Source: a virus | Direction: 5' to 3' (one strand) | Virus record (IMG/VR): IMGVR_UViG_3300014613_000001 | Span: 32,001 to 96,000 of that record | Length of the DNA: 64,000 bases | Shown here: one piece after another, positions 3,001 through 64,000 of the stretch | Numbering within the stretch: the stretch's first letter is position 1 | How the letters are laid out: the number at the start of each line of letters is the position of its first letter | Notes under the pieces: model-generated | The model's database searches: none | What the model was told of the DNA's origin: nothing | The model's input: the letters and a program-made list of their open reading frames with translations, nothing else | Made by a program: the position numbers and the translations under genes

Positions 3001-3311
3001 TAGATTCGGACACCGGGGTGGCTACTGGGCAAGAGGGCTTCCACAGTCGAGCTTTCGGCAGCGGCCCCAATGGTAGGAACCTACGGAATCTGCTTCCACC
3101 TGATTCAGAGGGACGTCCTGTGAGACGTATCCTTGGGATCAGTACCGAGAGCAGCTCACGTCTCGAGGACGGCCGAGAGGCAGCTCTATCCGAAGAGGAG
3201 AAGCAGCAGGTCAGTGACGCTCTGGTGCGGCTGGACACGCGCGCGGACAAAGCCGACCGTGTTCTGGACTACGTGTCCGATCTCTGGGCCTCGAGGGGTC
3301 TGCTCGGGTAG
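1..3311 (+). CDS. Large virion structural protein, possibly baseplate hub-like (5' partial; frame is open to the window edge)
   Basis: 1094+ aa ORF, same frame open upstream of position 27; heads the + strand virion module. Product inferred from context only. Confidence 0.45.
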   Translation, partial: LFEGSDEAVTSDETDVTLDRGPQSAGPTTTPELTGQEEDTDEEPSIADSRWKLFFCGEIMGYQFVKSVGQRAIILTCMDLSVMWDTCYQYQVDVASLHGNGTANFVGAGTNLFDTFFQSSTSTLVDIVMQRSRARPELTGLLSGIVHLLERVGGVYNNRGFRGVNDFFTMAELRYHLIDMIGASEDDNSSQRLFPRQAFNRWTRGSGGRLGKIASFRDILGLLCKFIFHNTFPCPIAYYQRPDTIDRTRTVAYSSTQQFSSTAEWRELNGRIDTHWRSFNSYVGSNTPISSGRVSRQLDSLATQIVATKDAVQQHSARYSLASATNALHHAGQEVRALASHLSRVEGDPEGGDVTYSSWAAGSTPAPRIQRARDGFRTAIQALQGGSHSSSGNRERTDTVVRHGRLYSQIIRPDIFMCAPPCCNVLFPELYSSFQFSRQYMREVTRMRLTVSDEIFGPDVLLNSVYFAPDVEVLGARVQQGRHAQDNAENATLSRAAYGRRLMEHELYTGPIPVFERMNEVNIMAARGAQTNFRGARVPYAMRAAHFQFYKNRWSSRSMAVTGKFNPWAVCGFPAVVVDRYMNEEQLILSGLRGQRFLEEAFERDYPGIVQNADDEFTYDSEWGALDAWDILKNTVPTQFVGLIMGLTHQISQNSASTSYQFTASRVHRDNDVLLGANRIRASAPPVRREHVGTVSYTATGTGSRAQSDIQGHLNALNQYAGAEPGSIADLSTRLSVLASGIERTKRALEGSGDRERNNLQSAFQDLHQAGRSVLTMARLSRMNDSGGGTSFAYEVDQFDRATSTARNRLQSALDIVQGASSRRRSVAAEVEEPDEIDVPLEDFIRPPWMADIWANDRIGGVYQQFFGTGAITDPSVISTGYETAVDTMDAAAQDADEDRPLEPIPSELGLGTEGEDPALRPLPSDLEDPGSLDPIRQDGRAVQNAEMGISVQRAIDLLIRSYSAIKAQEGMDINEFVRAYTWRPVANMTDILGGRDLTIDSDTGVATGQEGFHSRAFGSGPNGRNLRNLLPPDSEGRPVRRILGISTESSSRLEDGREAALSEEEKQQVSDALVRLDTRADKADRVLDYVSDLWASRGLLG

Positions 3312-31292: not shown

Positions 31293-33422
31293 ATGGCATC
31301 AGACACTTTTTTCGCTCCGTATGAGCAAGCGAAGAATGCTCACCTGATCAGGCCGACGGGCGGGCTGAAGGGTGAGATTTTCGATCTCCGAGAGGATGTC
31401 TCGGACGGGTTTGCGCGCGTGGATGCCGTCGTCGGCGCTCGATCGCAGAAGAACCCCGTGCGTATGGCGACAGCCGCCGCACTGGGTGCCTACGTCCAGG
31501 CAGGAACAGGTCCCGGGGCGACGCTGACTCAGGTGGCCGCGGCCGTCGAGGCTATCGACGGGGTAACTCCTGTCGTCGGTGATCGAGTCCTGGTCAAGGA
31601 TGGGTCCGCCGGTGAGGACAACGGTATCTACACCGTGACCGTGGTTGGTACGGGTGTGATCAAGCAGGTGCTCACTCGAGCTGTGGACTTTGACGACGCC
31701 GCTGATGTGGTGAGCGGTGCCATCATCCCCGTGACCGAGGGCACGGCGCACGACAACACGATCTGGATGCTCACCACCAACAACCCGATCACGTTGGACA
31801 CCACCCCGCTCCTCTTCCAGGAGGTGCTGACAGACCTGGTTCCGACCAAGGATCCGGTTCGGTTGGCCACGGCTGCCGCGCTGGGTGCTTGTACCGCGGC
31901 GGGGACGGGTCCCGGCAAGACCCTGACTCAGGATGTGGCCGCCATCGAGAACATCGACGGTGTCGCACCTGTGGCCGGCGATCGTGTCTTGATCAAGGAT
32001 CAAGCTGCGCAGGATGACAACGGCATCTACGTCGTGACCACGGTGGGCACCGGTGTCATCTTCCAGGTTCTGACCCGGGCCACCGACTTCGACGACGATG
32101 CGGATGTGGTCTCCAACGTCACCTGCCGTGTCGAAGAGGGTGCCACCAACGCTCTCACCATGTGGTATCTCTCGACGGTCAACCCGATCGTCGTGGATAC
32201 CACCAACCTGGTCTTCCTGAGCTCCCACGCTGCCGATCATATCGATGGAGCCCGGGACGCGATCGACGGTGACAACCTCGGCATCACCTGGGTTCCGGCC
32301 ACCTACGCTCGTAACGCAGCTCCTGCTGAAGCAGCCAACGTCACTTCGTTGACCGCGCACCTTCGGGGTGTCGATGATCTGCTGACAACTCATGCGGCGA
32401 CTCTCGCTGCTCGAGATCGGAAGGACAACGTCCGGTTGGCCACAGCCGCGGCCCTGGGCGCCTGTACCCCCACCGGCACCGGAGTCGGCAAGATCCTGAC
32501 TCAAGATGCCGGAGCCGTTGAGGATATCGACGGCGTGGCGCTGGTGGTTGGCGACCGTATCTTGGTCAAAGATCAGGCGGCTCAGGATGACAACGGCATC
32601 TACACGGTCACGGTCGTGGGTGATGCCACTCCCACTCAGCAGGTTCTGACCCGCGCAGTCGACGCCGACACGGATGCGAAGGTCACCGCGGGGATGTTCA
32701 CCAGGGTCGAAGAGGGTACGGCCAACGCTGGTACCATCTGGTACCTCACCACGGTCAACCCGATCGTGTTGGATACGACCAACCTGGTTTTCTCCAACAT
32801 CCCCAACCTGCACATGGCCACGCACCTTCCCGGTGGTGGCGATGCTCTGACCACGGCGGCCCCGGTCGATATCAGCGGAGCCAACGCCGAGGGTGCCGCG
32901 GCCAGCTTCTCCCGGTCGAACCACGTCCATAAGCTGGCGCTCCTGAACTCCCACCTGGCTCACCAGATGATCGCGCCTTTCGGCGGCGTAGCGGCAGCGG
33001 CGGGCGCGATCAACGCGCGTCGGACCTTCGACTTCGATGATGGTCTCGGCGCCCCCGACGAGCAGATCTGCTGCGAAGGGATCATGCCAGAGCACTACAG
33101 CGGTGGGGACATCACCGTTGTGCTGACCTGGTATGGAACGGATGTGGCTCTCGGAGACGTCAAGTGGGATGTCTCCTGGGAGCGCATCGAGGCTGGGGTC
33201 CTGCTTCTCACTGGTGACAGCTTCGCCGGCGTGCAGACCTCGACTGTGACCCAGACGGCGATCAACGTGGCCCTGGAGACGCCGATCGTCTTCACGCAGG
33301 CTCAGGCTGACGGCATCGTCCCCGGCGACGCGTACCGGATTCTGATCATGCGTGATTCCAACGACGCCGGCGACACTTGCGTGGGCGATGTCGGTCTCCT
33401 TGCGGTCCACGTCTACCAGTAG
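31293..33422 (+). CDS. Fibre/decoration protein with three ~125-aa internal repeats
   Basis: K(N/D)(P/N)VR(M/L)ATAAALGA..GDR(V/I)L(V/I)KD..NGIY.VT..LTRA.D repeated at about 31449, 31848 and 32421. Confidence 0.75.
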   Translation: MASDTFFAPYEQAKNAHLIRPTGGLKGEIFDLREDVSDGFARVDAVVGARSQKNPVRMATAAALGAYVQAGTGPGATLTQVAAAVEAIDGVTPVVGDRVLVKDGSAGEDNGIYTVTVVGTGVIKQVLTRAVDFDDAADVVSGAIIPVTEGTAHDNTIWMLTTNNPITLDTTPLLFQEVLTDLVPTKDPVRLATAAALGACTAAGTGPGKTLTQDVAAIENIDGVAPVAGDRVLIKDQAAQDDNGIYVVTTVGTGVIFQVLTRATDFDDDADVVSNVTCRVEEGATNALTMWYLSTVNPIVVDTTNLVFLSSHAADHIDGARDAIDGDNLGITWVPATYARNAAPAEAANVTSLTAHLRGVDDLLTTHAATLAARDRKDNVRLATAAALGACTPTGTGVGKILTQDAGAVEDIDGVALVVGDRILVKDQAAQDDNGIYTVTVVGDATPTQQVLTRAVDADTDAKVTAGMFTRVEEGTANAGTIWYLTTVNPIVLDTTNLVFSNIPNLHMATHLPGGGDALTTAAPVDISGANAEGAAASFSRSNHVHKLALLNSHLAHQMIAPFGGVAAAAGAINARRTFDFDDGLGAPDEQICCEGIMPEHYSGGDITVVLTWYGTDVALGDVKWDVSWERIEAGVLLLTGDSFAGVQTSTVTQTAINVALETPIVFTQAQADGIVPGDAYRILIMRDSNDAGDTCVGDVGLLAVHVYQ
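31449..32795 (+). repeat. Three coding repeats within the fibre gene
   Basis: Unit starts are 399 and 573 nt apart and are similar at both DNA and protein level. Confidence 0.85.
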
Positions 33423-34846: not shown

Positions 34847-35014
34847 GTCTACCTACCTTTCTACCTACCGTGCCTACCTGTTTTGCAGTATACTTGATCA
34901 GCAGTGTGATAGACAGCTAAGATTTGGTGCCCGGGGTGTTGGGCCAAAAGACGAGGCCGGGAGAGGTTGATTCCTCTTCCGGCCTCGCCGTTTGGATGAG
35001 TCGAGGCGTTGGCG

Positions 35015-35146
35015 TCTGGGATCACTAAACCTCCCAGCTGGTGTTGTCGTCAGGATCGGCGTGTGGTCTGGGATCGCTAAACCTCCCAGCAGGTGTTGTC
35101 GCAGGATCTCAGAGTCTGAGATCAGTAAGCCTCTCAGCTGGCATTG
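35015..35146. repeat. Three direct repeats, each containing a hairpin CTGRGA-N10-TCYCAG
   Basis: Units start at 35015, 35067 and 35115; the third has compensatory changes (CTGAGA/TCTCAG). Confidence 0.8.
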
Positions 35147-44795: not shown

Positions 44796-45811
44796 TGCAC
44801 ATACCTTACTTTCGACTCGATGATGTTTCTGAGTCCTGTGCGGTTCAAGTCTTCGAGCTCTTCTGCCCACGAGGGGTACTGTCCTACGTACACCTCGCGG
44901 GATTTGGAGAGCCACTTACCAATCTTCTCTGTCGCCGACACCCCGGCCGGATCGTTATCCAAAAGCAGGATGACGCACGAGGACGGGATGACGTGCAGCA
45001 CGCGGTGCTGCTCCTTCGTCATGTGGGACCCCATGAGGGCAACTGTGTTGGTGCAGCTGTTCTGGATCATCCAGATGCAGCCCTTGAACCCCTCCACGAT
45101 GATGAGGGGCTGTCGCCGTTTCCTGTGTTGAGCTTCCGCATAGACGCGGTAGCCGTTCCAGAGGTGGTGGTTCCCCAAGATGCTGTACTTAGGGTGGGCC
45201 TCGTCGAATTCTGGCCCATAATCCCCGGGGACGAACTCCCCTTTGTAGTCTCGATACCCTCCTGTGTACACCTTGTATCTCGGCGCATCTCCGCGAACCG
45301 TAGCCCGCCCAGAGTATCCGACGAGGTTCCCGTAGGTGTCTCGAATCGGGAACATGATTCTTTCATTACGACGGTCATAGCCGATATCGAGCTCGTGCAG
45401 CAGCTTTCGATCAAACCCCGCGCGCACAAGATCAAGCGGCGTCCAATCGAATATCCCAGTGATGGATTCCGGCAGGATGACCTCGCTGAGTCTGGGATCC
45501 TTGTGTGCATCAACGCGTTTTCGTCGTTGCCTTTTCCTTTCATAATTTTGCAGCTCGAGACGGACAGGCGCGGTCAACCTGTCGATGGTCTGTCGTCGAA
45601 GTCCGATCAGCCGTAGGAGTGTGGCAAGGTTACCGGACCTGTGACACCCATGACACATCCAGAGCCCGTTACGAACGTTGATGGCGAAGCTGGGGTCTCG
45701 GTCGTTATGGTCCGGTAGCGGGCAGCACGCGTAGACGTTGTCGCTGCCGCCAAGCCGCGCCTTCTCGAGGTATGGCTCGACCACGCTGAATACCGGGCCA
45801 AAGTCTCTCAT
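44747..45811 (-). CDS. dnaG: DNA primase (CHC2 Zn finger + TOPRIM)
   Basis: CCPLPDHNDRDPSF..CHGC; IMFPI; IVEG; LLDND. Confidence 0.88.
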   Translation of the reverse strand: MRDFGPVFSVVEPYLEKARLGGSDNVYACCPLPDHNDRDPSFAINVRNGLWMCHGCHRSGNLATLLRLIGLRRQTIDRLTAPVRLELQNYERKRQRRKRVDAHKDPRLSEVILPESITGIFDWTPLDLVRAGFDRKLLHELDIGYDRRNERIMFPIRDTYGNLVGYSGRATVRGDAPRYKVYTGGYRDYKGEFVPGDYGPEFDEAHPKYSILGNHHLWNGYRVYAEAQHRKRRQPLIIVEGFKGCIWMIQNSCTNTVALMGSHMTKEQHRVLHVIPSSCVILLLDNDPAGVSATEKIGKWLSKSREVYVGQYPSWAEELEDLNRTGLRNIIESKVRYVQWTRTEYEKLFELDVS

Positions 45812-48498
45812 TTGATCCTTTCCGGTGCGCTGATTTCTTCAGTTTGCACTTTGGCTGCTCTCTTCGCAGGCAGCTGGCGATCGTCTGGTCTGACTGATCG
45901 TTCTTGCCGAATTGGATTTAGACTCGATCGTCGAGTCCTGGGCGGCCCTGGCGCTGCCGGATCGGCTATGTCCCCCTTCACGATCTTTCCCTCCTCATCG
46001 AGCCAGGCGCGGACTCTCCATTTTGTGGAGAGTGTGACTTCCAAGATGAAGCCCCCGACCTGTGTCTCTCTCGAGGCGGCCATGTTGATCTTGAGCCGGG
46101 TTGAGATCCCGTCCTCACCCTTGCCCGCCTTCTTCACACGGTAGACTACGTCGGCTTCCTGCCCGACGGCATCCGCGTAGGCGATGTCGGCGACCTGCTC
46201 ATCCTCAGCTTTGTCTTCGTCCTCCTTCTTTCCGGGTCTGCTTCGTTGCGTGACGCCAATGACCGGTACATGCAGCGACGAGGATACTCCGCTGAGGTCC
46301 TGTACAATGTTGTACTGCGGCTCCCAACGAACCGATCGCTTTCCGGTCCTGTCGTCCTTCATCTTGTAGAAGGCATCCACGATGACGAAGTCCGCGCTGA
46401 ACTCGTCCATCTTCGCCATCAGGTGCGCGACACCGCCACCGTTGGGGTCGTCGTAGGCCGAGCAGAATTTTATGGCCCGACGTCGACCCGCGGTGGCGTC
46501 CATCTCCTCGTCTTTGCCCAGACGTCGAAGCGCGGCCTTGTAGTACTTCCAGTCCAGCTCGGATAGGTTGCCCTCCTTCAGCTCCGTGTAGCTGAGATTG
46601 AGCAGAGCACACGCGACTCGGTCTTCGAATAGAGCTGTGCTCATCTCGCAGGAATAGACGAGCACCCGACGATTCGCGTGCATGTAGGCGTGAGCAGCGA
46701 TCTTCGCGGCTACCCAGCTCTTCATAGAGTTCTTCACGATGAAGTTACTCACCACGAACATTGGGTGCCGATCGTCGTCCATGGTGATGTCCCAGCACCG
46801 CTTCGGTCCGAGACTCTCGATCGACGTGATGGGTTCCCACCTGATGTCCGAATCGGCCCACTCCAGAAGTTGTGGTGCGTCGAGGTGGCCAGCTAGAAGG
46901 CGCAGTAGGTGACGACTGATCTTTCCTGTCCGTCGGAACAGCTTTCCAACGGAAAATCCAGACCACAGACGCTTCCAAGGCCGGCTACCCTTGGCGGTGA
47001 GAATGGCATTCATGAGCTCATCGCTGTAGGGGATGCCGTCGTCTTGTCGTTTCTGAGTGACCCTGCTGCCCGCGAGACGTTGCAGCTGTAGCGACTTGTG
47101 TTGGCAGGCGAGATGGAGAGCCGTGTTTAGGATACGATGTTGCTCCTGGGAGTAGACATTCACGTACCAGGCTCGGGTACCGAGGTTGGTTCGGACCCTC
47201 TGCAGTACCCCTGTGACGCCGAATCGAAGGAGCAAGTGTTTGATGTCGGTTGCCAGGCTATAGCTCGCGGTCGACCAATAGATCTTGTTCCGTGCGACAC
47301 AGCCGTCGGTGTCAGTATAGCCCGATAGAAACTCGGCCACGATCCGATTGCTGCTCGAGAAGATGATGTCTGGCACTCGCTTCGCCGTCGATTTTTGCCC
47401 GTGGCAGCCGATCCGGCGTAGCCAATCTAGCACGGGGTTTGATCGGCCATTCCCGACGATCCTGTAGTGCATGGGCCTGTTGGCGCGAACTTGCGCACCC
47501 ATCGTGGCCGCGCAGTGTCTGAGCGATTCGATTACATCTTGATCTCCTTTGGTGAATTGCACCTCGTTCCGGGTGTAGTTTCCGTCTCCGACGAGCAGCC
47601 CGAGCAATCGTGCGTGCTCCTCCGGTATGTCCTTGGGCTCGGATGGTTCTGGGAGTTTTCGCGCTACGGCGACATGGTTACCTACCTGTAGCTTTGCCGC
47701 GGGCATGTAGGATAGGTTGGAGATCATCATTGGATGATCTTCTCCGACTTCAACGACATGTCCGCTGCGTGTTGTGATCCTGACAGCTTCCTTTGTTCCA
47801 GCGTAGGAGCCAGAGCACCCGCCCCAGTCGAGTCGCTGACCGCCCTTCAGGTACGCCAGCCGATCGGGGGGAGTCTCTATCGGACACAGGATTCCGGTGT
47901 CGGCCAGCACCTCTTGGCCCTCTACCACGCACTTCGGCCTGCCAAAGATGATGATGAAGTCTTCGGTCTGGATGCCCTGAGTTACATCGTTCAGCTCTTC
48001 CCACGGATACGGGATGCCGAGGATGTGCTCCTTGTCCCTTCGCATCCGTGCGCGTTCGATGATGTCCTCGGCGTCTTCGGCTAAGATCTTGTCCGAGCTA
48101 TTCGGGGTCATCTTCTGGAGCTGAATCGTGGCGCTTCGGAGGGTGTCGAGTGCTTTTTCCGGCTCGTCGGCGTCATTGAGGTCTAGAGCTTCGTCAATGG
48201 AGTCGAAGAGCGCCTGCCTTAGCGCAGCTCGTCGTACCTGGACGCAGAGCTCTTGGATGGTCTCCTGAACCTTGTTGAGCACGAACCCGGGGAACCTGGC
48301 GGCCATCCATCGTGCGGAAGGCACGCGTCCGTAGTGCTCTCGATGGTGGTAGTACTGATGGATGTCCTGGAACATGTCCTTCGCGACGGGGTTTCGCAGG
48401 ACATTGTGCCCAACGCCGCTAGACAGGACGGTGCGAAGATCGCTGGTCTCGACAATCTTTGAGATCAGGTCCAGCTCGATCATGTCGTCAGGGGGCAT
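45808..48498 (-). CDS. dnaB: DnaB-like replicative helicase with intein
   Basis: After splicing: IFGRPK/SMKS Walker A, VYSCEM, VIVDAFY, VTQ, ADIAYADAVGQEAD. Confidence 0.85.
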   Translation of the reverse strand: MPPDDMIELDLISKIVETSDLRTVLSSGVGHNVLRNPVAKDMFQDIHQYYHHREHYGRVPSARWMAARFPGFVLNKVQETIQELCVQVRRAALRQALFDSIDEALDLNDADEPEKALDTLRSATIQLQKMTPNSSDKILAEDAEDIIERARMRRDKEHILGIPYPWEELNDVTQGIQTEDFIIIFGRPKCVVEGQEVLADTGILCPIETPPDRLAYLKGGQRLDWGGCSGSYAGTKEAVRITTRSGHVVEVGEDHPMMISNLSYMPAAKLQVGNHVAVARKLPEPSEPKDIPEEHARLLGLLVGDGNYTRNEVQFTKGDQDVIESLRHCAATMGAQVRANRPMHYRIVGNGRSNPVLDWLRRIGCHGQKSTAKRVPDIIFSSSNRIVAEFLSGYTDTDGCVARNKIYWSTASYSLATDIKHLLLRFGVTGVLQRVRTNLGTRAWYVNVYSQEQHRILNTALHLACQHKSLQLQRLAGSRVTQKRQDDGIPYSDELMNAILTAKGSRPWKRLWSGFSVGKLFRRTGKISRHLLRLLAGHLDAPQLLEWADSDIRWEPITSIESLGPKRCWDITMDDDRHPMFVVSNFIVKNSMKSWVAAKIAAHAYMHANRRVLVYSCEMSTALFEDRVACALLNLSYTELKEGNLSELDWKYYKAALRRLGKDEEMDATAGRRRAIKFCSAYDDPNGGGVAHLMAKMDEFSADFVIVDAFYKMKDDRTGKRSVRWEPQYNIVQDLSGVSSSLHVPVIGVTQRSRPGKKEDEDKAEDEQVADIAYADAVGQEADVVYRVKKAGKGEDGISTRLKINMAASRETQVGGFILEVTLSTKWRVRAWLDEEGKIVKGDIADPAAPGPPRTRRSSLNPIRQERSVRPDDRQLPAKRAAKVQTEEISAPERIK
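46729..47931 (-). mobile_element. Intein with LAGLIDADG homing endonuclease (401 aa)
   Basis: Starts CVVEGQEV and ends FIVKN followed by Ser; LLGLLVGDG and FLSGYTDTDG blocks. Confidence 0.92.
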
Positions 48499-53996: not shown

Positions 53997-54048
53997 GTAC
54001 TGATACTGTCCCTTTCATGTTTGGCTAGATTCGATCTCGTGGGATGTC

Positions 54049-54057
54049 CTTATACCT
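54049..54057 (-). promoter_or_regulatory. Candidate promoter AGGTATAAG heading the replication operon
   Basis: Located in the divergent intergenic region; repeated at 59682-59690 and, as the 8-mer, at 35275. Confidence 0.5.
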
Positions 54058-54151
54058 TTCCTGTGTCGGCCTTTGCCCAGCTCCTCCAGGGTGATAGACT
54101 TGATGCAGAAACCCCCGATGCTTGTTCGTTCGGGGTCCAACGAGGAGTCAC

Positions 54152-55354
54152 ATGCTACTTTCAGCCGGTTCCGTGATTGATCCGTATGACGATGGGTTCC
54201 GATCCCTCAAGAACTTCTTCGGCTCTGGGCGCGAGATGCCGGATTTCATCAAGACCGCTTCCATCCTTGATCAAGATCAGCTTTCCAAGCTGCCGGATCA
54301 TGCGTTCGCTGTGGTCATGGTCGGGCCTGATCGGATGCTGCGGAAGTACGCCTGTGTCGACAAGGCGCACACCGCCGTGAACGTCATGTACTTCCTGAAG
54401 TCAGAAGCTGATCTTCCGCCGTCGGCCCGTGTGAAGGTGGCGGAGAACCTCATCCGGGCTTGTCGGCACTTCAGTGTTCAGCCGCCGGCGCAGTTGAGCA
54501 AGATCGCTTCCTTGAACAAGAAGCGCCTGATCAAGACGGATGGCCCAGATATCATGGTGCCGGTTCAGGGCCGAGAGAAAGAATCAGATGTCCCGGTGAA
54601 CAGGAACGCGTACCCCACAGAAACCGGGCGTACAAAGCTGGCGTACGTCATGACGTCGCCGTACGTGGATCTCGATGAACCGTACCGCCCCGAGCGTAAC
54701 ATCGAAAAGACGGCGTCGAGCTCGGTCTCCGCACTTCCTGACGGGCGTTTTCCTCTCGATACTTTTTCTCAGGTGAAAGAGGCTGTTGAGTTCTTTCGGG
54801 AGACGGCGCGTACGATACACCCAAGAGTCCGTCGAGAGATGTGTGTGAAGATCGCATCGCGGGCCGAGGATCTGGGGGTGCAGATCCCGGATGTGATCCG
54901 GAAATACGGATCAACAGAGTGGGCCGCGAAAGGAGAGCGTGAAGCGACGTTGGTGTCCAGGCGTCAGGTGTGGGCTTCTTCAGGAAATGAAGAGGGTCCG
55001 GGAATGCTCGATCTGCTGATGGAGAAGCAGGCCAGCACGGATCCGGATGTCTTCGCCAATGTGTTGGCCGAGATCGACGCTCAGACTGGCATCGACCATC
55101 TGTGGGATCGTCATCTCGCTGATCCGTGGTTGTCGACTTTCGGCATTCGAAAGACAGCGGCCTGGAAATGGTCGGACAACGGGACGGAGGTCACCGAGCA
55201 GCAGTTGAAACGACTGGTCGGATCACGGATGGAGAAGGTCGCGGAAACCTTTGGGAGTCATCTTGCTGACGGGCTCGCGAGAGAAACCACTGTGGTTTTT
55301 GATTCGCTTCCTTTGGACACCAAGCGTATCTTGGCCAGGATGGCACAAGAGTAG
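54152..55354 (+). CDS. Putative head scaffold/assembly protein with six K-x-A motifs
   Basis: GAGGAG RBS before ATG 54152; KTAS, KIAS, KLAY, KTAS, KQAS, KTAA; two similar F.(C/L)D/V..(T/V)...V.YF modules. Confidence 0.55.
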
Positions 55355-55378
55355 GACGGGCAAGGATGAGGTATCGCC

Positions 55379-55712
55379 GTTTTCCCCACACGCGTGGGGA
55401 TGGACCGGTGGGAGTGGCTCGGAACCCCATGGGACCCAAGTTTTCCCCACACGCGTGGGGATGGACCGTCGGCGACGAGGGTGAGACCCGCCAGGGTCGA
55501 GTTTTCCCCACACGCGTGGGGATGGACCGCCGGGGCTGCTACCAGAGCTTCATTGTGCGAGGTTTTCCCCACACGCGTGGGGATGGACCGAAGATGGCCG
55601 AGCTCGAGAAGCTCTTCGGATTGTTTTCCCCACACGCGTGGGGATGGACCGTCGGACACCCAAGCCGACGAAGGTCGGTGCCCGTTTTCCCCACACGCGT
55701 GGGGCTGGATCT
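55379..55712 (+). CRISPR. Type I-E-like CRISPR mini-array: 6 repeats (29 bp) and 5 spacers (32 bp); no adjacent cas genes
   Basis: Repeat GTTTTCCCCACACGCGTGGGGATGGACCG at 55379, 55440, 55501, 55562 and 55623; degenerate copy at 55684 (..GGGGCTGGATCT); 61-bp period; CCCCAC/GTGGGG stem. Confidence 0.97.
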
Positions 55713-55718
55713 AAGAGG

Positions 55719-56603
55719 ATGACACGCCAAGGTGAAGAGCGTCTTTGGCAGCAACTTCAGGACGCCGAAGAGGAGAAGCCGATCGAGGAGGTCGAACCAC
55801 CGGCTGATCCGAAACCCGATAACGTCGAGAACGACAAGTCGGGAGATATGACGGTTTCGAATTTCTTGGCACACCACGATACCCATCCACTCGTGCTCGA
55901 CGCAGCTTGCCTGAAGGCGTTTCAGACGGACTGGTTGTGGTGGGAGCCTGAGATTATACACTCTGAGCTGCGGCGTGTGTTTGGGCAGTCAACGATCAGC
56001 ACCCTGAACTGGCAGCAGATCCAGGCGTGCAAGACCTGCCATGTTGTCCCGACCCCGTGGAAGGAGTGGGAGGTGTTCAACACTGTGATCATGGCGTTGA
56101 ACAACAACATCCCTGACTTTCACACCATGCAGAAGCCGAGCATCGCGCAGGTCATGGTGGGCCTGGATATCATGAGTCGGATCGACAGCCGACAGATGTT
56201 TTCGGAGGAAGTAGAGAAGTTCATTGCCGCCGTATTCTTGGAGGATGGCGTTTACTTCATGCCGCCTCCGGCAGATTTCGCGCAGGAGTGGGCGTCGAGG
56301 CCCGAGTACCGGTGCCGAAGGTGTGGACGCATTGATCGCGATGACATGAACGACATGTGCGATAGCTGCGGAGCGCCGGACAGTGAGTTGGAGCGGCAGT
56401 TGGCTTTCGACCCCGCCCCCGTCATGGCCAGGTACAATGAGTGTGTTCGTCTCGGAAACGATCGCGAGGACATGCTCGAGGAGACGATCATCGACGTTCA
56501 AACAGCGAAGCTCCTCCTCGCTCGAGAGTACATGCTGTTTCGGCGTCAGCAGTTGGAAGATCAGCTCAAGGTGGTGAACGATGCCAAGCCCATACGTGAT
56601 TGA
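55719..56603 (+). CDS. Hypothetical protein with Zn ribbon
   Basis: Starts 6 nt after the last repeat; CRRC..CDSC. Confidence 0.7.
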   Translation: MTRQGEERLWQQLQDAEEEKPIEEVEPPADPKPDNVENDKSGDMTVSNFLAHHDTHPLVLDAACLKAFQTDWLWWEPEIIHSELRRVFGQSTISTLNWQQIQACKTCHVVPTPWKEWEVFNTVIMALNNNIPDFHTMQKPSIAQVMVGLDIMSRIDSRQMFSEEVEKFIAAVFLEDGVYFMPPPADFAQEWASRPEYRCRRCGRIDRDDMNDMCDSCGAPDSELERQLAFDPAPVMARYNECVRLGNDREDMLEETIIDVQTAKLLLAREYMLFRRQQLEDQLKVVNDAKPIRD

Positions 56604-57489
56604 TCTGGCCTTCATCGACGCACAAGTTGACGAGATGGAGAAGATCGCCTTCCTCGGTAGCGCCTGGAAGGGTCTCCAGGCATCGAAACCTTTTGTGGGG
56701 CATCTTCTGGGAGCAGGTGCTGGAGCTGTAGCCGGTGGAGCAGCCGGAGCTGCGACAGCAGCTCCAGAGAATCGTGTTCGGCATGCTATCGGTGGTGCGG
56801 TGCTAGGTGGTATTGCTGGTCTGGTTCCAGGTCAGCTCGCTACGAAGGCTGGAAGGGCGGCTGTGGGGCGTCTTGGTCAACGTCAGCTCCACGGTCTGAC
56901 GGGCAAGCTGCCCGGGCACAGCTTCAAGAAGTCGCACGCGGTCGTAGGAGATGCTCGAACTGCTGCACTCGCCAAGATGAAATTCGACAACCCTGCTGTG
57001 CAAAGTGCCTCCGAGTTGAAAAAGGACATGTGGGGGCCCTTCAAGAATTTGCGCTCTAAGGCACAGTTTCGTGCACAGGAACATCAACGGTTTCTGGCAG
57101 CGAATGATCTGACGAACCTCCCCGGGTTGGTGAGGGGGTACGTGAAACCGGCTGCTGGTATTACACGTCGACAGATTCTGAAGTCCAATCTCCTGGCGCC
57201 TGGGATCGGTTTCGGCGTAGGTCTTCCGCTGGCCCTCACGGCTCCCTCCGCAGTGGAGTCTGTTCAGCAGCGGAGTATCAAGCCGCTGGCGCGCGGGGTG
57301 GTGGAGAACGCCAGCTTTGCGCTTGGCGGTGGCCTTCCGATTGGAGCCGCCATGGCTGCTGGGTATGGTGGATCTCGGCTCGCAGGGTTGATCGGTAAGG
57401 CTCCGCCAGTAACACAGCCAATCGCGCCCAACCGTACAACCAATCGTGCCCAACCGGCTATGCAGGGTCAAGTGATACCTGCGAGGTGA
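56581..57489 (+). CDS. Basic Gly/Ala-rich protein with glycine zippers, putative ejected internal protein
   Basis: N-terminal FIDAQVDEMEKIA; GAGAGAVAGGAAG and GGAVLGGIAG segments. Confidence 0.6.
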   Translation: MPSPYVIDLAFIDAQVDEMEKIAFLGSAWKGLQASKPFVGHLLGAGAGAVAGGAAGAATAAPENRVRHAIGGAVLGGIAGLVPGQLATKAGRAAVGRLGQRQLHGLTGKLPGHSFKKSHAVVGDARTAALAKMKFDNPAVQSASELKKDMWGPFKNLRSKAQFRAQEHQRFLAANDLTNLPGLVRGYVKPAAGITRRQILKSNLLAPGIGFGVGLPLALTAPSAVESVQQRSIKPLARGVVENASFALGGGLPIGAAMAAGYGGSRLAGLIGKAPPVTQPIAPNRTTNRAQPAMQGQVIPAR

Positions 57490-57493
57490 TCTG

Positions 57494-59359
57494 ATGTTTG
57501 GATATGGAGAACCGGTTGGTGCACAGCAGTCCCAGACCTCGGGCCGTATTCGGGGCTCGGGGAGGATCGAGGGGGTCAAGTACCCCTCGCCATTTTTTGA
57601 TCTGGCGCACACGTACCTGCCGAGCTCGGTCAAGCAGCTGTTTCAGTGGTGTCGGTATTTCTATCTGACAAACCCGCTGATCGCGACCGTCGTCAACAAA
57701 TTGGCCGAGTACCCGATCACCGATCTCGTGATCGACACTAATAATAAAGGGCTCAAGGACAAGTGGCAGGGGTTTTTTGATGACGACATCTTTTTGCAGC
57801 CGAGTCTGATCGACATCGGTCTGTTCTACACATGCTACGGGAACGCGTTGATATCCCTGAGCTTCCCGTTCGTCAAGTGGCTCAAGTGCGAGAAGTGCAA
57901 ACATGAGGTTCAGGCGAAGGAGGCGACGTACCAGTTTCGGGGGTGTAAGTTCCGCCTCACTTGCAAGAAGTGTGATCATCAAGGTGTAGCCGAGGTTCGT
58001 GATCAGTCGCTCTCCACAACATTCGGATCGCGTTTGATCCTCTGGAACCCAGAGGACATTGACATTCAGTACAACGATCTCACCGGAGAGACCGTGTACT
58101 ACTACACGCTCCCTGCGCATCTGAAGAGCGCCATTCGGGTCGGACGACGAGAAGTAGTCGACCGTTCTCCGCAGGTGTACATCGATGCGGTTCGTCTCAA
58201 TAAGTCGGTCGTCCTCGATGCTGACAACGTCTACCATCTCCGAAGGCCTTCGATCTTCACAGGTCGTTTGAACCGAGGATGGGGCACACCGCTTCTCATG
58301 CCGGTGCTGAAGGACACCTTCTATCTTCAGCTCATGAAGAAGGCGCAAGAGGCTGTGCTGCTCGAGCGCATGCTTCCTCTGAACGTCATATCCCCCGCCT
58401 CCGCAGCTCCAGGAGTGAATCCTTACGAGCTCACTAACCTGGATGATTGGCGAACTCACGTCATGGGGGAGATCATGAAGTGGCGGCGTGATCCTCTCTA
58501 CATCCCGGTCATGCCTCTGCCGCTCAATCACCAGGTCATCGGAGGGGATGGTCGAGCGTTGTTGCTCAACAACGAGATGCGTCAGATCTCGGATGTCATT
58601 GTGGCCGGGATCGGGTGCCCACCAGAGCTTGTCTACGGCGGGCTCTCTTGGTCGGGCTCCAACGTCAGTCTCCGGATCCTCGAGAACCAGTTTCTTAGGT
58701 ACCTGTCCGGCATGCTGCGCTTTATCAAGGTCTTCCTCATTCGACGAACCGCGGCGCACCTCGGTTGGCCGGCGGTGGATGCGCGGTTCAAGCCGTTCAA
58801 GATGGCTGACGATATCCAGCGCAAAGCGTTCATGCTGCAGGCCAATCAAGCGAAGTTGGTCAGCGACACGACTATGCGTGAAGAGATGGATCTCAGCCCG
58901 GATGGGGAAGATTCGCTCTTGAAGAGTGAGGTCAAGCGCCGTCTCGAGAGTATGGAAGAGCAGCAAATGGCCGAGGCCCAGATCGCCGGCAAAGCCAGTG
59001 TGCTCTCTGCGAAGTACGAGGCTCGTGCTCAGATGGCTCTGGCCGAAGAGCAGCAACAGATGAGTCAGGGAAGTTACGGTTCGGCTCAGGGCGAACCAGG
59101 CGCCGGCACAGCCGAGGCTCCGGTGTCTCCGGCACAGCCGGATGCAGCTCAGGGCGGATTCGCGCAGATGCTGCAGCGCCTACAACAGGTTTCTCCAGAC
59201 AGCCAGCAGGCGATCATCCAGCGCATCGCACAACAGAACCCACAGCTCGCCGAGACACTCTCCAAGCAGCTTCAGCCGGCCGCACCTTCCACAGACTCCT
59301 CTGCGGGTAAGCCCCTGCCAGAACAGCTTCCACCGCGGCGTGCAGCCAGCCCCGTGTGA
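57494..59359 (+). CDS. Portal-like protein
   Basis: NPLIATVVNKLAEYP, YTCYGNAL, GWGTPLL..VL, Q/A-rich C-terminal tail; size and architecture are typical of portals. Confidence 0.6.
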   Translation: MFGYGEPVGAQQSQTSGRIRGSGRIEGVKYPSPFFDLAHTYLPSSVKQLFQWCRYFYLTNPLIATVVNKLAEYPITDLVIDTNNKGLKDKWQGFFDDDIFLQPSLIDIGLFYTCYGNALISLSFPFVKWLKCEKCKHEVQAKEATYQFRGCKFRLTCKKCDHQGVAEVRDQSLSTTFGSRLILWNPEDIDIQYNDLTGETVYYYTLPAHLKSAIRVGRREVVDRSPQVYIDAVRLNKSVVLDADNVYHLRRPSIFTGRLNRGWGTPLLMPVLKDTFYLQLMKKAQEAVLLERMLPLNVISPASAAPGVNPYELTNLDDWRTHVMGEIMKWRRDPLYIPVMPLPLNHQVIGGDGRALLLNNEMRQISDVIVAGIGCPPELVYGGLSWSGSNVSLRILENQFLRYLSGMLRFIKVFLIRRTAAHLGWPAVDARFKPFKMADDIQRKAFMLQANQAKLVSDTTMREEMDLSPDGEDSLLKSEVKRRLESMEEQQMAEAQIAGKASVLSAKYEARAQMALAEEQQQMSQGSYGSAQGEPGAGTAEAPVSPAQPDAAQGGFAQMLQRLQQVSPDSQQAIIQRIAQQNPQLAETLSKQLQPAAPSTDSSAGKPLPEQLPPRRAASPV

Positions 59360-59636: not shown

Positions 59637-59681
59637 TTTGACCTCTGATCTGGGCCGCTAGATAGGCCCGGTTCCATTGCT

Positions 59682-59690
59682 CTTATACCT
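59682..59690 (-). promoter_or_regulatory. Candidate promoter AGGTATAAG
   Basis: Identical to 54049-54057. Confidence 0.45.
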
Positions 59691-59845
59691 GTTGGCTTGT
59701 TCCATTTGCGTGGGGCTGGTAGAGTGAGATCAGGTTAGACAAGGAGCCGACATGGCCAGATTTGACCCCGAAGGCGGACGTAGCTCTGCCAATGACGGGG
59801 ACGAGGGCGCGAGGTCGGAGAGCCGGAAGCACATGGGGGCACGTC

Positions 59846-62800
59846 ATGTCACGGCTTGACCCGAAAGACAGCTTTGCGGCACTGAAGGAAGGGGTGAAGA
59901 CGTCGATCAGTAGCACCTTCCCACAGGTTGGCGAAAAGAACACTCTTGATCTCGAGGACATCGAGATCACCGATGACATAAACGAGGCTGACTACACCGG
60001 GCAGAAGGACGCCAAGATCAACGGGCGAACTTGGGGCGTTCCTGTACACGCCACGATGGTGCTCAAGGACAATAAGACCGGGAAGGTTCTTGATCGGAGG
60101 CGACAGAAGATCGCCACGCTCCCAAAGGTGACCAATCGTTACTCCTACGTCGTCCAAGGATCAGAGTATCAGATCGACGGACAGTGGCGCCTTCGTCCAG
60201 GTGTCTACACGAAGGTCAAAGAGAACGGGGAGCTTGACTCGTTCTTCAACATCAAAGGGCGCCCGCTTCACGTAGGATTTGATCCTAAAGAGCGGAAGTT
60301 CAACATTCAGCATGGGGGCGCGAAGCCCCCACTCTATCCCGTCATGAAAGCTCTTGGTATCAGTGACGATACGCTGGAGAAGAAGTGGGGGAAGGATATC
60401 CTGGCTGCGAACCGGACAGATGCTCGAGGTCGGCCGCTCAAGGTCGACAAGGTGGCCATCGACTTTGCTCGTCGCATTGACCCTCGTGCAGAGGTAGAGA
60501 CCTTTGAAGACGCCTCTAGGGTCATCCAGACCAACTTTGAGCAGTCGGAGCTCCACCCCGAATCGACAAAGCGCACACTTGGAAAAAAGATCGATCGCGT
60601 CACTCCCGAAGCAGTGCTTCTCTCGTCGGGAAGACTCCTGGGGGTGGCTCGAGGAACTGAGAAGCCTGATGTTCGGGATTCGCTGGTGTTCAAGGACTTC
60701 CACGGTGTGGAGGATTTCGTCGCGGAGAGGATCACTGGACACGCTCCGACGATCGCAAGGCGGGTTGGGAATAACCTGGATAAGACCGACAAGATCAAGG
60801 ACATCGTCGGGCCCGACATGTACGATCGTCCGATCAAAGAATTCTTTGGGAAGGTGTCCCTGGCCAGTACACCTCCTCAGACAAATCCACTTCGAATGAT
60901 CTCTGGTCAGATGAAGACCACCATTGCTGGCGAGGGTGGTGTATCTGATGCGAATCGGATCACTGATGACGCAAAGCTCGTTGACCCATCGCACTTCGGA
61001 GTCCTCGATCCTCTGCACACACCTGAGTCTGTGAGCACGGGCGTTACCCTCCAGCTCACGCTAGGAGCTCGAAAGAAGGGAACTCAGATCGTAGTACCCC
61101 TGTACGATGTCAAGTCTGGGAAGACGAAGTTGGTCGATACCGCAGAGGTTCACGACTCGATCGTCGCGCTCCCGGATGAGGTACAGAAAGTAGGGGGTGT
61201 GTACGTTCCGAAGAAGGGTAACCGGGTGTTGGCGAGCATCGCCGGAAACGACATGCGGCCCACGGCCATGAAAGATGTGAAGTACATCGTTCCCCACTCG
61301 AGTCAAATGTTCTCGCTGGCGACCAACATGGTGCCCTTCATCAACAGTGATTCTCCAAACCGCGCCACGATGGCTGGGCGCCATATGGAGCAGACGATAC
61401 CCGTCGTCGACGGCGAGGTCCCGCTTGTTCAGTCCACGATCGGGGGGAAATCGTTCGACGAAATTATCGGTCGTTTTGCTTCCAGCAACGCGCCGGTGGG
61501 CGGAAAGGTAACGAAGATCACTGAAGATGCCGTCATGATGAAGTCGGATGACGGCAAGTCACATAAAATCCCGATCTACAACCACTACCCGCTCAATGAC
61601 AAGAAGGGATTTATGCACAGCACACCGACGGTCCAGGTCGGTGAACAGATCAAGAAGGGTCAGCTGCTCGCAGATACGAACTTCACGAAAGGCGGAGTGT
61701 ACGCCCCCGGGAAAAATCTGACCGTGGCGTACATGCCGTGGAAGGGTCTGAACTTCGAAGACGGTGTTATCGTGAGCGAAGAGGCCGCGGCGAAGATGAC
61801 CTCGATGCACATGCACAAGAAGGGGCTCTCGACGCGGGATGCGACTCTTGATGGGAAGAAGAAGTACCAAGCCCACTACCCGAATCAGCTGACGAAGGAA
61901 CGGGCCGAGAAGCTCGACGATGATGGCATCGTCCGTATCGGGCAGAAGGTCAAGCCGGGGGATGTGCTGATCGCAGCTCTTGGCGAGCAGGTGCTGACGA
62001 CTGAGCAGCAGAAGATGCGGCTCCTCCATCGCAGTCTTGTACAACCGAAGAAGGACAAGGCTGTGACCTGGCAGGAGGACTTCGAGGGCGAGGTCGTGGG
62101 GGTGAACCGACGTGGGAAGCACGTCGATGTCCATGTAAAGACTATCGAGCCCATGGAGATCGGAGACAAGCTCGTAGGCCGCCACGGAAACAAGGCGATC
62201 GTCACTGGTATCCTCGCCAAGGGTGAGATGCCTCAGACTCAGGATGGCCGACCTGTCGAGATCCTCATGAATCCGATTGGTACTCCGGGCCGCATGAACG
62301 TCGGACAGGTACTCGAGACAGCGGCTGGGAAGCTGGCGGAACACCGGGGTTCTCCTTACAAGGTCGAGAACTTCTCCGAGGAGGACAACCTCGAATCCGT
62401 TCGTAGTCAGCTTGCGGCAGCTGGCCTCGACGATAAGGAGGATCTGATCGACCCCGGCACGGGGAAGAAGATCCCCGGGGTACAAGTCGGGAAACAGTAC
62501 ATCCTGAAGATGGAGCACCAGGTCGGGAAGAAAATGGCGTCTCGTGAGCGTGATGCTTATGACCAGAACATGGTCCCTCGAGGTGGTGGGAAGCACGGAG
62601 CCCAAGCTCTTGGTGGGCTCGGCGTGTACGCCATGCTGGCTCACGGCGCGCGTGAGAACCTGCGTGAGATGCAGGTGAGCAAGACCGACAAGGATCAGAC
62701 GGACGAGCTGTGGACTGCCATCCAGACCGGAGAGCTCCTCCCGCCACCGAAGACGACCTTCGCCTACAATAAATTCAACGGGTACCTCAATGGAATGGGG

Positions 62801-64000
62801 GTGAACGTACACAAGGACGGCAACAGTCTGAACCTGATGCCGATGACGGACGCCGACGTGCTCAAGCTCTCGAACGGGGAGTTGAAGGACGCTGGGCGTG
62901 CCCTGAAGGCCAAGACGCTGAAGCCGGAAAAGGGTGGTCTCTTCGACGAGAAGATCACAGGTGGGATGGACGGGAAGAAGTGGGGCCACATCAGGCTCGC
63001 TGTACCTGTTCCGAACCCACTGTTTGAAAAGGCCGTCATGAGTCTGACAGGCCTCCGAGGACCGCAGTTCAATCGCATCATCGACGGCGACGCTGGTGTC
63101 ACGGAAGATGGGAAGATTGTTGACGAGGTTGGCGTGAAGGGGGCGGTCTACGGTCCCCCGGCTGTTGGCCGTCTCCTTGATAAAGTTGATGTCACGGCAA
63201 GTCTTGCCGAGGAAGAGAGTCGTCTGCCCAAGCTGAAGGGCCAACTCTTGAACGAGTCGGCCAAGAAGGTCAAGTACCTTCGAGCGTTGAAGAAGCTGGA
63301 TATGACGCCGACCGCGGCGTACATGACGCAGAACGTCCCTGTGTTGCCGCCTTCGATGCGTCCGATCTCTGTGATGGAGGACGGAAGCCTTCAGACGGAC
63401 GACCTCAACGAGCTCTACAAGGGCCTAGCGATCGTGAACGCGAAGCAGAGAGAGTTTCCAGCCGGGACTCCTGAGTCGCTCAAGGCTCCTATCGCTGCGA
63501 GTGTGTACGATCATATGAAGGCGTTGACGGGTAATGGCGGGACGCTCAACGCGAAGCACCCTGGCCTTCTGGAGATAATTGCCGGGAAGAACGGGCCCAA
63601 GACGGGCTTCGTCCAGAAGACGTTGATCAAGCGAAAGCAGGATCTCTCGGCGCGCTCGACCATTGTTCCTGATCCGACTCTCGGGCTTGACGAGGCGGCC
63701 ATTCCGCGGAAGGCCGCAAAGGAGATCTACAAGCCATTCATCGTCAAGGAGCTTCGAGCTATGGCCGGTACCTCACCGAACGAAGCCCGGAGGATGATTG
63801 ACGAGGATGACCCTCTTGCTCGAAGAGCGCTCGAACGTGTGGTAGAGAAGCGTCCGATCATTTTGAAGAGGGATCCGGTTTTGCACCGATACGGCGTCCA
63901 GGCGTTTAAGCCCAAACTTGTGGACGGTAAGGCGATCAAAATTCACCCTCTGGTGTGCTCGGGCTACAACGCGGACTTCGATGGGGACACCATGAGCGCC
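59846..64000 (+). CDS. Fused multisubunit RNA polymerase beta-beta' (3' partial)
   Basis: One frame with no stop: YVVQGSEY..LRPGVY, GDKLVGRHGNK, YILKMEH, GLFDEKI, WGHIRL, VPVLPPSMRP, DDLNELY, RKQDLSARSTI, RDPVLH, HPLVCSGYNADFDGD. Confidence 0.93.
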   Translation, partial: MSRLDPKDSFAALKEGVKTSISSTFPQVGEKNTLDLEDIEITDDINEADYTGQKDAKINGRTWGVPVHATMVLKDNKTGKVLDRRRQKIATLPKVTNRYSYVVQGSEYQIDGQWRLRPGVYTKVKENGELDSFFNIKGRPLHVGFDPKERKFNIQHGGAKPPLYPVMKALGISDDTLEKKWGKDILAANRTDARGRPLKVDKVAIDFARRIDPRAEVETFEDASRVIQTNFEQSELHPESTKRTLGKKIDRVTPEAVLLSSGRLLGVARGTEKPDVRDSLVFKDFHGVEDFVAERITGHAPTIARRVGNNLDKTDKIKDIVGPDMYDRPIKEFFGKVSLASTPPQTNPLRMISGQMKTTIAGEGGVSDANRITDDAKLVDPSHFGVLDPLHTPESVSTGVTLQLTLGARKKGTQIVVPLYDVKSGKTKLVDTAEVHDSIVALPDEVQKVGGVYVPKKGNRVLASIAGNDMRPTAMKDVKYIVPHSSQMFSLATNMVPFINSDSPNRATMAGRHMEQTIPVVDGEVPLVQSTIGGKSFDEIIGRFASSNAPVGGKVTKITEDAVMMKSDDGKSHKIPIYNHYPLNDKKGFMHSTPTVQVGEQIKKGQLLADTNFTKGGVYAPGKNLTVAYMPWKGLNFEDGVIVSEEAAAKMTSMHMHKKGLSTRDATLDGKKKYQAHYPNQLTKERAEKLDDDGIVRIGQKVKPGDVLIAALGEQVLTTEQQKMRLLHRSLVQPKKDKAVTWQEDFEGEVVGVNRRGKHVDVHVKTIEPMEIGDKLVGRHGNKAIVTGILAKGEMPQTQDGRPVEILMNPIGTPGRMNVGQVLETAAGKLAEHRGSPYKVENFSEEDNLESVRSQLAAAGLDDKEDLIDPGTGKKIPGVQVGKQYILKMEHQVGKKMASRERDAYDQNMVPRGGGKHGAQALGGLGVYAMLAHGARENLREMQVSKTDKDQTDELWTAIQTGELLPPPKTTFAYNKFNGYLNGMGVNVHKDGNSLNLMPMTDADVLKLSNGELKDAGRALKAKTLKPEKGGLFDEKITGGMDGKKWGHIRLAVPVPNPLFEKAVMSLTGLRGPQFNRIIDGDAGVTEDGKIVDEVGVKGAVYGPPAVGRLLDKVDVTASLAEEESRLPKLKGQLLNESAKKVKYLRALKKLDMTPTAAYMTQNVPVLPPSMRPISVMEDGSLQTDDLNELYKGLAIVNAKQREFPAGTPESLKAPIAASVYDHMKALTGNGGTLNAKHPGLLEIIAGKNGPKTGFVQKTLIKRKQDLSARSTIVPDPTLGLDEAAIPRKAAKEIYKPFIVKELRAMAGTSPNEARRMIDEDDPLARRALERVVEKRPIILKRDPVLHRYGVQAFKPKLVDGKAIKIHPLVCSGYNADFDGDTMSA

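Follow-up and report, generated by a model that had tools for sequence, protein, structure and literature searches.

Compact CRISPR arrays that lack cas genes and whose repeats match those of the host are known from huge phages, where they have a median of six repeats and are often found together with a small type V effector (PMC7162821). The array analysed here resembles these arrays (Al-Shayeb et al. 2020, PMC7162821) in that it is located in a large phage from an environmental metagenome, consists of six repeats, has a repeat that matches a host repeat, shares its genome with a small type V effector and is accompanied by neither acquisition nor interference genes. It differs from them in that some of the huge-phage arrays matched phages or host genes, whereas none does here, and in that the phage genome, having 178 kb, lies below the 200-kb cut-off of that set and the link is to a type I-E system of Chloroflexota. 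Virus-borne mini-arrays have also been described in SPV1 and SPV2, where they take part in interviral conflict (Medvedeva et al. 2019, PMC6858448; for a model and a review see PMC7099407 and PMC11656645, respectively). Here, too, a cas-less array with host-type repeats is found in a virus genome, and in both cases the use of host Cas proteins has been proposed. However, the SPV arrays contain one or two spacers and a host-like leader with a promoter, whereas the phage array has five spacers and no leader. Moreover, the SPV arrays occupy the same position in sister viruses, carry different spacers and match a sister virus, whereas none of the examined relatives of the present phage has an array and its spacers do not match these relatives. 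Finally, mini-arrays without leaders occur in bacteriophages, and their spacers may be obtained by recombination with host arrays (PMC6858448). Lacking a leader and having a degenerate last repeat, the phage array fits this proposed capture by recombination.

Phage-encoded, cas-less repeats of host type are further known as Cracr and Racr RNAs, and the type I-E examples are processed by host Cas6e (bioRxiv 10.1101/2024.10.29.618823; PMC10651486). Published I-E Cracr arrays have pseudo-spacers of 21-24 nt, altered repeats and at least nine PAM-proximal matches to a cas promoter or a toxin locus (bioRxiv 10.1101/2024.10.29.618823). In contrast to Cracrs and Racrs, in which the spacers are shortened or absent and the repeats are altered, the phage array combines full-length spacers with perfect repeats, and no match to a cas promoter was found in the cas regions of two candidate hosts. 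As for cellular arrays, the I-E arrays of Thermus thermophilus and of Deinococcus megaplasmids have the same period and ~68-71% identity over repeat-spacer stretches, but they are cellular and accompanied by cas operons, and they differ from the phage array at several repeat positions and have no spacer in common with it. The principle of cas-less phage arrays in host format is already published, and the present locus adds no new principle to it.

The stretch of DNA that we analysed, in the following referred to as the window, comprises 64,000 nucleotides and corresponds to bases 32001-96000 of a single IMG/VR virus record of 177,773 bp from groundwater. The genome is complete: CheckV rates it at 100%, and its ends carry a direct repeat of 123 bp. 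It contains virion genes, i.e. genes for a portal protein, tail-type proteins and Ig-repeat proteins, as well as a minus-strand replication module with an intein-bearing DnaB and a helicase; a tyrosine integrase was not found in the phage genome. Two groundwater metagenome runs from 2018 carry the stretch at ~36x and ~88x, respectively, and in both of them the array unitigs and the flanks have equal depth and no array-less junction was seen. Two runs from 2019 that belong to another study contain identical pieces at ~2x, including the unchanged array-to-gene junction. All of these are DNA runs, and no RNA run containing the stretch was listed. The groundwater runs also show five other spacers between copies of the same repeat at 2-3x depth, indicating that a cellular-type array co-occurs with the phage.

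The array and the genes around it are arranged as follows (window coordinates).

54024-54056, plus strand: bipartite motif of 7 and 8 nt, separated by 18 nt; candidate promoter for the array-bearing block (from its recurrence and conservation)
54122-55354, plus strand: upstream gene, 400-410 aa, clade-conserved (72 homologues)
55355-55378, plus strand: 24-nt junction from the upstream stop codon to repeat 1, without a leader (sequence reading)
55379-55683, plus strand: five identical 29-nt repeats, each followed by a 32-nt spacer (sequence reading)
55408-55439, spacer 1
55469-55500, spacer 2
55530-55561, spacer 3
55591-55622, spacer 4
55652-55683, spacer 5
55684-55712, plus strand: degenerate terminal repeat with three changes in its final 8 nt
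55719-56603, plus strand: downstream gene, 294 aa, clade-conserved (44 homologues, many on contigs of 107-191 kb)
56581-57489, plus strand: 302-aa gene of the same block (synteny in relatives)
57494-59359, plus strand: portal protein gene, 621 aa (ESM Atlas and a weak PHROG portal match)

Direct reading of positions 55379-55712 yields six 29-nt repeats and five unique 32-nt spacers, the latter being letter for letter those of the original prediction, which had been made from the window alone. The repeats start at 55379, 55440, 55501, 55562, 55623 and 55684, i.e. with an exact period of 61 nt. Copies 1-5 are identical, with zero substitutions over 145 nt, whereas copy 6 has three substitutions, all of them within the last 8 nt. 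Five identical 29-mers at a fixed period are beyond what chance can give, and this is the sole such array in the 177,773-bp genome, with no solitary copy of the repeat elsewhere. A single repeat folds at -14.1 kcal/mol into a G+C-rich hairpin that is located where it is expected and leaves a tail of 8 nt, which we take to be the 5' handle of the crRNA on the basis of the known Cas6e cleavage site. The geometry of 29 + 32 nt with hairpin and 8-nt tail is the format of type I-E, so that the type originally assigned to the array is borne out by its architecture as well as by the identical repeats next to host cas genes described below. With the tail at the 3' end of the repeat the array is oriented along the plus strand, as are the neighbouring genes, and the degenerate copy is located at the 3' end of the array, where cellular arrays also have a worn terminal repeat. 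No CRISPR direct-repeat family of Rfam scored above threshold for the array; Rfam covers few repeat variants, and in practice a match to it is not a defining feature. A tRNA scan found none.

All five spacers have a perfect handle upstream and an intact hairpin downstream. This includes spacer 5, as the changes in copy 6 leave untouched the hairpin, which according to the Cas6e cleavage site would provide the 3' handle for the crRNA of this spacer. The substitutions are thus confined to the only part of the array that no crRNA would need, a pattern that favours competence over decay.

That no cas operon is present in the window, as stated originally, was confirmed, and the designation of the array as Cas-less can be extended to the whole genome as far as type I-E is concerned: six-frame Pfam searches for Cas7e, Cas6e, the HD domain of Cas3, Cas1, Cse1 and Cas5 revealed no type I-E cas genes in the complete genome. 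Since the E. coli control was not detected for several of these families, the eight Cas proteins of the best candidate host (G001, see below) were also used as tblastn queries, which gave nothing genuine in the phage genome. A tblastn match of 'cas2' on the array itself turned out to be an artefact, as the host cas2 reading frame runs into the host array, and the Cas2 domain alone gave no match. These searches found no complete type I-E cas operon elsewhere in the genome. The designation has to be qualified in one point, because the phage does encode a Cas12m-like effector associated with a different repeat, although this gene is not such an operon. The 658-aa protein is encoded at genome positions 3329-5305, 28.7 kb before the start of the window and 84 kb from the array, and it matches Cas12m chains of the PDB with E-values of 3.6e-40 and 1.3e-14 and Cas12u1 of PADLOC with an E-value of 4.4e-78. 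The gene is flanked by its own repeat, which bears no relation to that of the I-E array; of its 32 genomic copies the one nearest to the I-E array is 20 kb away. Three copies of this repeat, at ~35013, 35065 and 35113, constitute a mini-array on the minus strand (window 35013-35139). The phage combines a type V layer of its own with an orphan array of a different type.

The repeat links the phage to a group of hosts. When one genome per prokaryotic species was scanned for exact matches, the repeat was found in only three records, all of which are Chloroflexota.

G001, Ardenticatenaceae MAG: 64-repeat array directly downstream, on the same strand, of a complete cas3-cse1-cse2-cas7-cas5-cas6e-cas1-cas2 operon
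G002, unclassified Chloroflexota MAG: 18-repeat array and cas7e on one 10-kb contig
G003, Longilinea MAG: five-repeat array only; Cas7e was not found in this incomplete MAG

Repeats with 1-5 mismatches are present in ~10% of 401 genomes sampled from the class, among the matches listed, and the nearest plasmid-borne repeats in PLSDB are those of the Thermus and Deinococcus I-E arrays. As the original prediction proposed, the repeat is able to identify the host group, since in Chloroflexota MAGs the identical repeat is found next to I-E cas genes, which in one case form a complete operon. Likewise, the proposal that the host has a I-E system is well supported by the identity of the repeat to those of cas-adjacent Chloroflexota arrays. 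The assignment of the host to Chloroflexota bacteria having this variant of I-E, which is based on repeat identity, is also well supported. We also compared 1,058 host-type spacers, i.e. 85 from G001-G003 and the viral contig L004 plus 973 from 20 related arrays of the class, with the phage and with eight loci (seven relatives and L004) and obtained no match; the spacers of the phage do not resemble any of them either.

Some features of the host loci are worth recording. The G001 array is interrupted by a 2.86-kb insertion (G001:C1:10250026-10252886), and the G001 Cas3 has 1,219 aa, including an N-terminal HTH plus WCX extension (L007:6813-10472, minus strand). In G003 the five-repeat I-E array directly follows units of a different CRISPR repeat type and is itself followed by an A+T-rich stretch (L003 ~2700-2876 and 3151-3250). 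L004, an unrelated viral contig of 38.7 kb, carries a five-repeat array of the same repeat with three mutated copies (L004:5494-5768), located between a gene for an HTH repressor-like protein and a tyrosine integrase gene, and this array could lie at the edge of a prophage. The decaying array of L004 shows that elements of these hosts picked up this array type more than once.

Within the phage genome the array is embedded in a run of genes on the same strand. The upstream protein is modelled by AlphaFold2 with a mean pLDDT of 85 and consists mostly of helices, but despite the good model there is no fold match in the PDB, and no Pfam, PHROG or PADLOC family was assigned. The array ends 6 nt before the start codon of the 294-aa gene, which was set by comparison of the N-terminus with the relatives; the ESM Atlas gave nothing usable for this protein. 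The 302-aa protein has a weak PHROG match to an internal virion protein (E-value 0.003), and the 621-aa protein is assigned as portal by the ESM Atlas, where its structure matches a portal cluster with a TM score of 0.69 and Mu-type portal clusters with 0.61-0.64, and the feature scores to portal families are 0.93-0.94. The description of the surroundings as a head operon therefore holds in so far as the portal gene is located 1.8 kb downstream of the array in the same strand block, but it does not extend to the upstream protein, which is helical, lacks a fold match and is not recognisable as a capsid protein.

The bipartite motif upstream of this block is found at the following sites, with spacers of 17-19 nt.

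window 54024-54056
window 59657-59689
genome 104744-104776
genome 131050-131082, minus strand
genome 172842-172875, minus strand

Three of the copies are exact and two near-exact, all of them are intergenic and point at the downstream gene, and ~3e-4 copies would be expected by chance. The motif precedes the portal block, the RNA polymerase gene (motif at 59657-59689), a gene for a 619-aa protein outside the window and two others, and it is kept at equivalent positions in the relatives L029, L030, L010 and L011. Based on this recurrence and conservation we regard it as a candidate for a phage-specific promoter. It is 1.3 kb away from the array, with no terminator-like site in between. Being located inside a same-strand run that extends from the conserved promoter-like motif to the portal gene, the array is most likely transcribed as a part of the portal gene block.

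Relatives of the phage, on contigs of up to 191 kb, have the same gene order. In six of the relatives for which DNA is available the slot of the array is taken by a gene for a protein of ~250 aa (451 aa in one case).

L010:5256-5999, slot gene
L011:4633-5988, slot gene
L028:2751-3491, slot gene
L029:2740-3492, slot gene
L030:2739-3497, slot gene
L031:2753-3499, slot gene

A seventh relative, L009, probably carries the slot gene, too, as its contig ends just past the start of a gene at this position. In the closest relative (66-68% protein identity) the gene coordinates place the two flanking genes directly next to each other, i.e. the slot is empty. CRISPR-like repeats are absent from the loci of all seven relatives with DNA. 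The slot proteins have an N-terminus of ~45 aa in common with a 709-aa Ig-repeat virion protein of the phage (gene at window 31293-33422, the shared N-terminus being encoded at 31293-31436), whereas their bodies differ, which suggests that the slot product is an exchangeable virion accessory protein with a common anchor. The array is thus specific to this lineage, inserted where the virion gene block has a variable slot.

As to its origin, the array was probably captured by the phage lineage from the array of a Chloroflexota host, and a capture as a trailer-end piece is probable because the last repeat is degenerate and there is no leader. Over the 150 nt preceding the array there is no similarity to the regions that precede the arrays of G001, G002, G003 and L004, and no fragment of host cas2 was carried along with the array. 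The mean G+C content of the spacers is 64%, as compared to 63-65% for G001 DNA and spacers and 57% for the phage, so that the spacers are closer to G001 than to the phage, although with five spacers this is only a hint. As the array has no leader, it can probably not be updated by Cas1-Cas2.

Based on these findings we propose, with a probability of roughly one half, that the captured array is used by Cas6e, Cascade and Cas3 of the host against rival elements, as has been published for arrays of this kind (PMC7162821, PMC6858448). According to this proposal a pre-crRNA would be transcribed from the phage DNA as part of the portal block and, provided that the I-E system of the host matches, its Cas6e would cleave every repeat at the hairpin base, releasing five crRNAs of 61 nt, each composed of the 8-nt handle, the 32-nt spacer and a 21-nt hairpin. 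These may then be loaded by host Cascade, which would recruit host Cas3 to DNA that contains the respective protospacers, resulting in the degradation of this DNA. Among possible targets, competing phages and other mobile elements that share the host would be the most plausible.

Several observations argue against a use of the array on rivals. No protospacer was found for any of the spacers. The original prediction held that the spacers define the targets of the phage and can be traced via protospacers with an AAG-type PAM; our searches do not substantiate this, as no spacer has a match in IMG/VR, INPHARED, PLSDB, the 401 Chloroflexota genomes with a full list of matches or the candidate cas regions, the phage does not match itself and the hits in Chloroflexota have no PAM in common. 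In detail, the phage genome contains no self-match at up to nine mismatches, and IMG/VR gave nothing for all five spacers (queried with N at every sixth position, spacer 4 also being codon-degenerate). By blastn no spacer matched the phages of INPHARED, and the PLSDB plasmids yielded only the Thermus and Deinococcus I-E arrays and no protospacer. A scan of JGI metagenome contigs for two of the five spacers, spacer 4 (codon-degenerate) and spacer 3, also gave nothing. The best matches outside of arrays in 401 Chloroflexota genomes have 6-12 mismatches, their seeds are broken and they do not share a PAM, so that we attribute them to chance; this search included a weak match in the unpublished genome G149. 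In another search, covering 401 genomes of the class, arrays predominate among the matches listed, and it informs on arrays only. Over its first 12 nt spacer 4 agrees with the portal genes of two relatives, at the same codon in both (L010:8067-8078 and L011:8153-8164), but this was rejected as a target, since the other 20 nt are unmatched (16-17 identities out of 32) and chance would give ~0.3 such matches. PAM-proximal matches to the cas regions of G001 and G002 remain at chance level, none of them in a promoter, and in L007 two PAM-proximal partial matches were seen vs. 0.6 expected. As few mismatches were tolerated and the source samples were outside the searches, the empty target result is weak evidence. 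Apart from the targets, the array is absent from every relative examined, with no sign of long-term retention or of spacer turnover. Moreover, the block looks like one for virion morphogenesis, and if it is expressed late, the crRNAs would come late for superinfection exclusion. Finally, without a tyrosine integrase there is no obvious long-lived carrier state, in which guides would pay most.

Another view is that the array is a neutral passenger, i.e. a piece of a host array that was gained recently by recombination during an infection, has not yet decayed and is of no use to the phage. This view would readily account for an array that is unique to this phage among its relatives (seven with DNA and the closest one with its gene coordinates), lacks a leader, finds no target in the searches and sits in a variable accessory position. 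We nevertheless consider it unlikely, if certainly to be reckoned with: repeats 1-5 have accumulated zero substitutions in 145 nt and changes occur only where they would affect no crRNA, and the array fits tightly between its neighbours, with flanks of 24 nt and 6 nt and without host leader, cas2 fragment or trailer. In addition, its depth equals that of the flanks, an array-less junction was seen in neither of the two runs and the junction recurs in another year. A recent capture is compatible with all of these observations. Alternatively, the RNA rather than the interference might be what matters, with array transcripts soaking up host Cas6e and Cascade or reprogramming Cascade to repress host cas genes. 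The candidate host G001 with its I-E array of 64 repeats indicates that the phage is confronted with a system of this kind. During infection the array would exist in many copies and might be transcribed strongly, and both Cracr arrays directed against I-E systems (bioRxiv 10.1101/2024.10.29.618823) and Racrs (PMC10651486) do exist in phages. However, unlike published I-E Cracr arrays the phage array has canonical 32-nt spacers and perfect repeats, unlike Racrs it is not a solitary repeat devoid of real spacers, and in the cas regions of the two candidate hosts G001 and G002 matches remain at chance level, with none in the promoter. Moreover, none of the 1,058 host-type spacers (0/1,058) matches the phage, so that heavy I-E pressure is not apparent. 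An anti-CRISPR role of this kind is therefore improbable.

Use of the array by the Cas12m-type effector of the phage instead of host I-E proteins can be regarded as extremely improbable. The two are encoded in the same genome, but the effector gene comes with its own unrelated repeat, of whose 32 copies the nearest is 20 kb from the array, while the repeat of the array is identical to repeats beside I-E cas operons; furthermore, coding genes abut the array on both sides, leaving no adjoining scaffold-like non-coding region. A composite scheme, which we judge to be quite improbable, would have the phage operate two CRISPR layers at once, one consisting of the DNA-binding effector Cas12m with dispersed guides and one of the borrowed I-E array inside the portal gene block, the latter acting, beyond the targeting of rivals, as I-E-sensing expression switch and as anti-CRISPR. 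In this scheme host Cas6e would cut at the six repeats and thereby split the mRNA of the block, detaching the upstream gene from those on the portal side, and a flood of phage crRNAs might displace the host guides from Cascade.

Whichever role the array has, it ties an uncultivated 178-kb groundwater phage to Chloroflexota hosts with a particular I-E system, and few such pairs are known. The locus is a clean case, in a complete genome, of a phage having both a type V effector of its own and an orphan array in host format, and it shows the point of entry of an array, which here replaces an accessory gene within a conserved block of virion genes. Should processing and interference take place as proposed for the use of host Cas proteins against rivals, the phage would constitute a tractable case of a virulent-looking phage that makes use of host Cascade-Cas3.

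Two further genes of the window have unusual architectures. The gene for the DnaB-type helicase (window 45808-48498, minus strand) is split by an intein with a LAGLIDADG endonuclease domain. At the end of the window (59762-64000+, corresponding to genome positions 91762-97992) a fused beta/beta' RNA polymerase is encoded in one frame of ~2,076 aa with Rpb2 and Rpb1 domains; the RNA polymerases of the relatives have 2,462-3,966 aa, some of them containing inteins or LAGLIDADG inserts.
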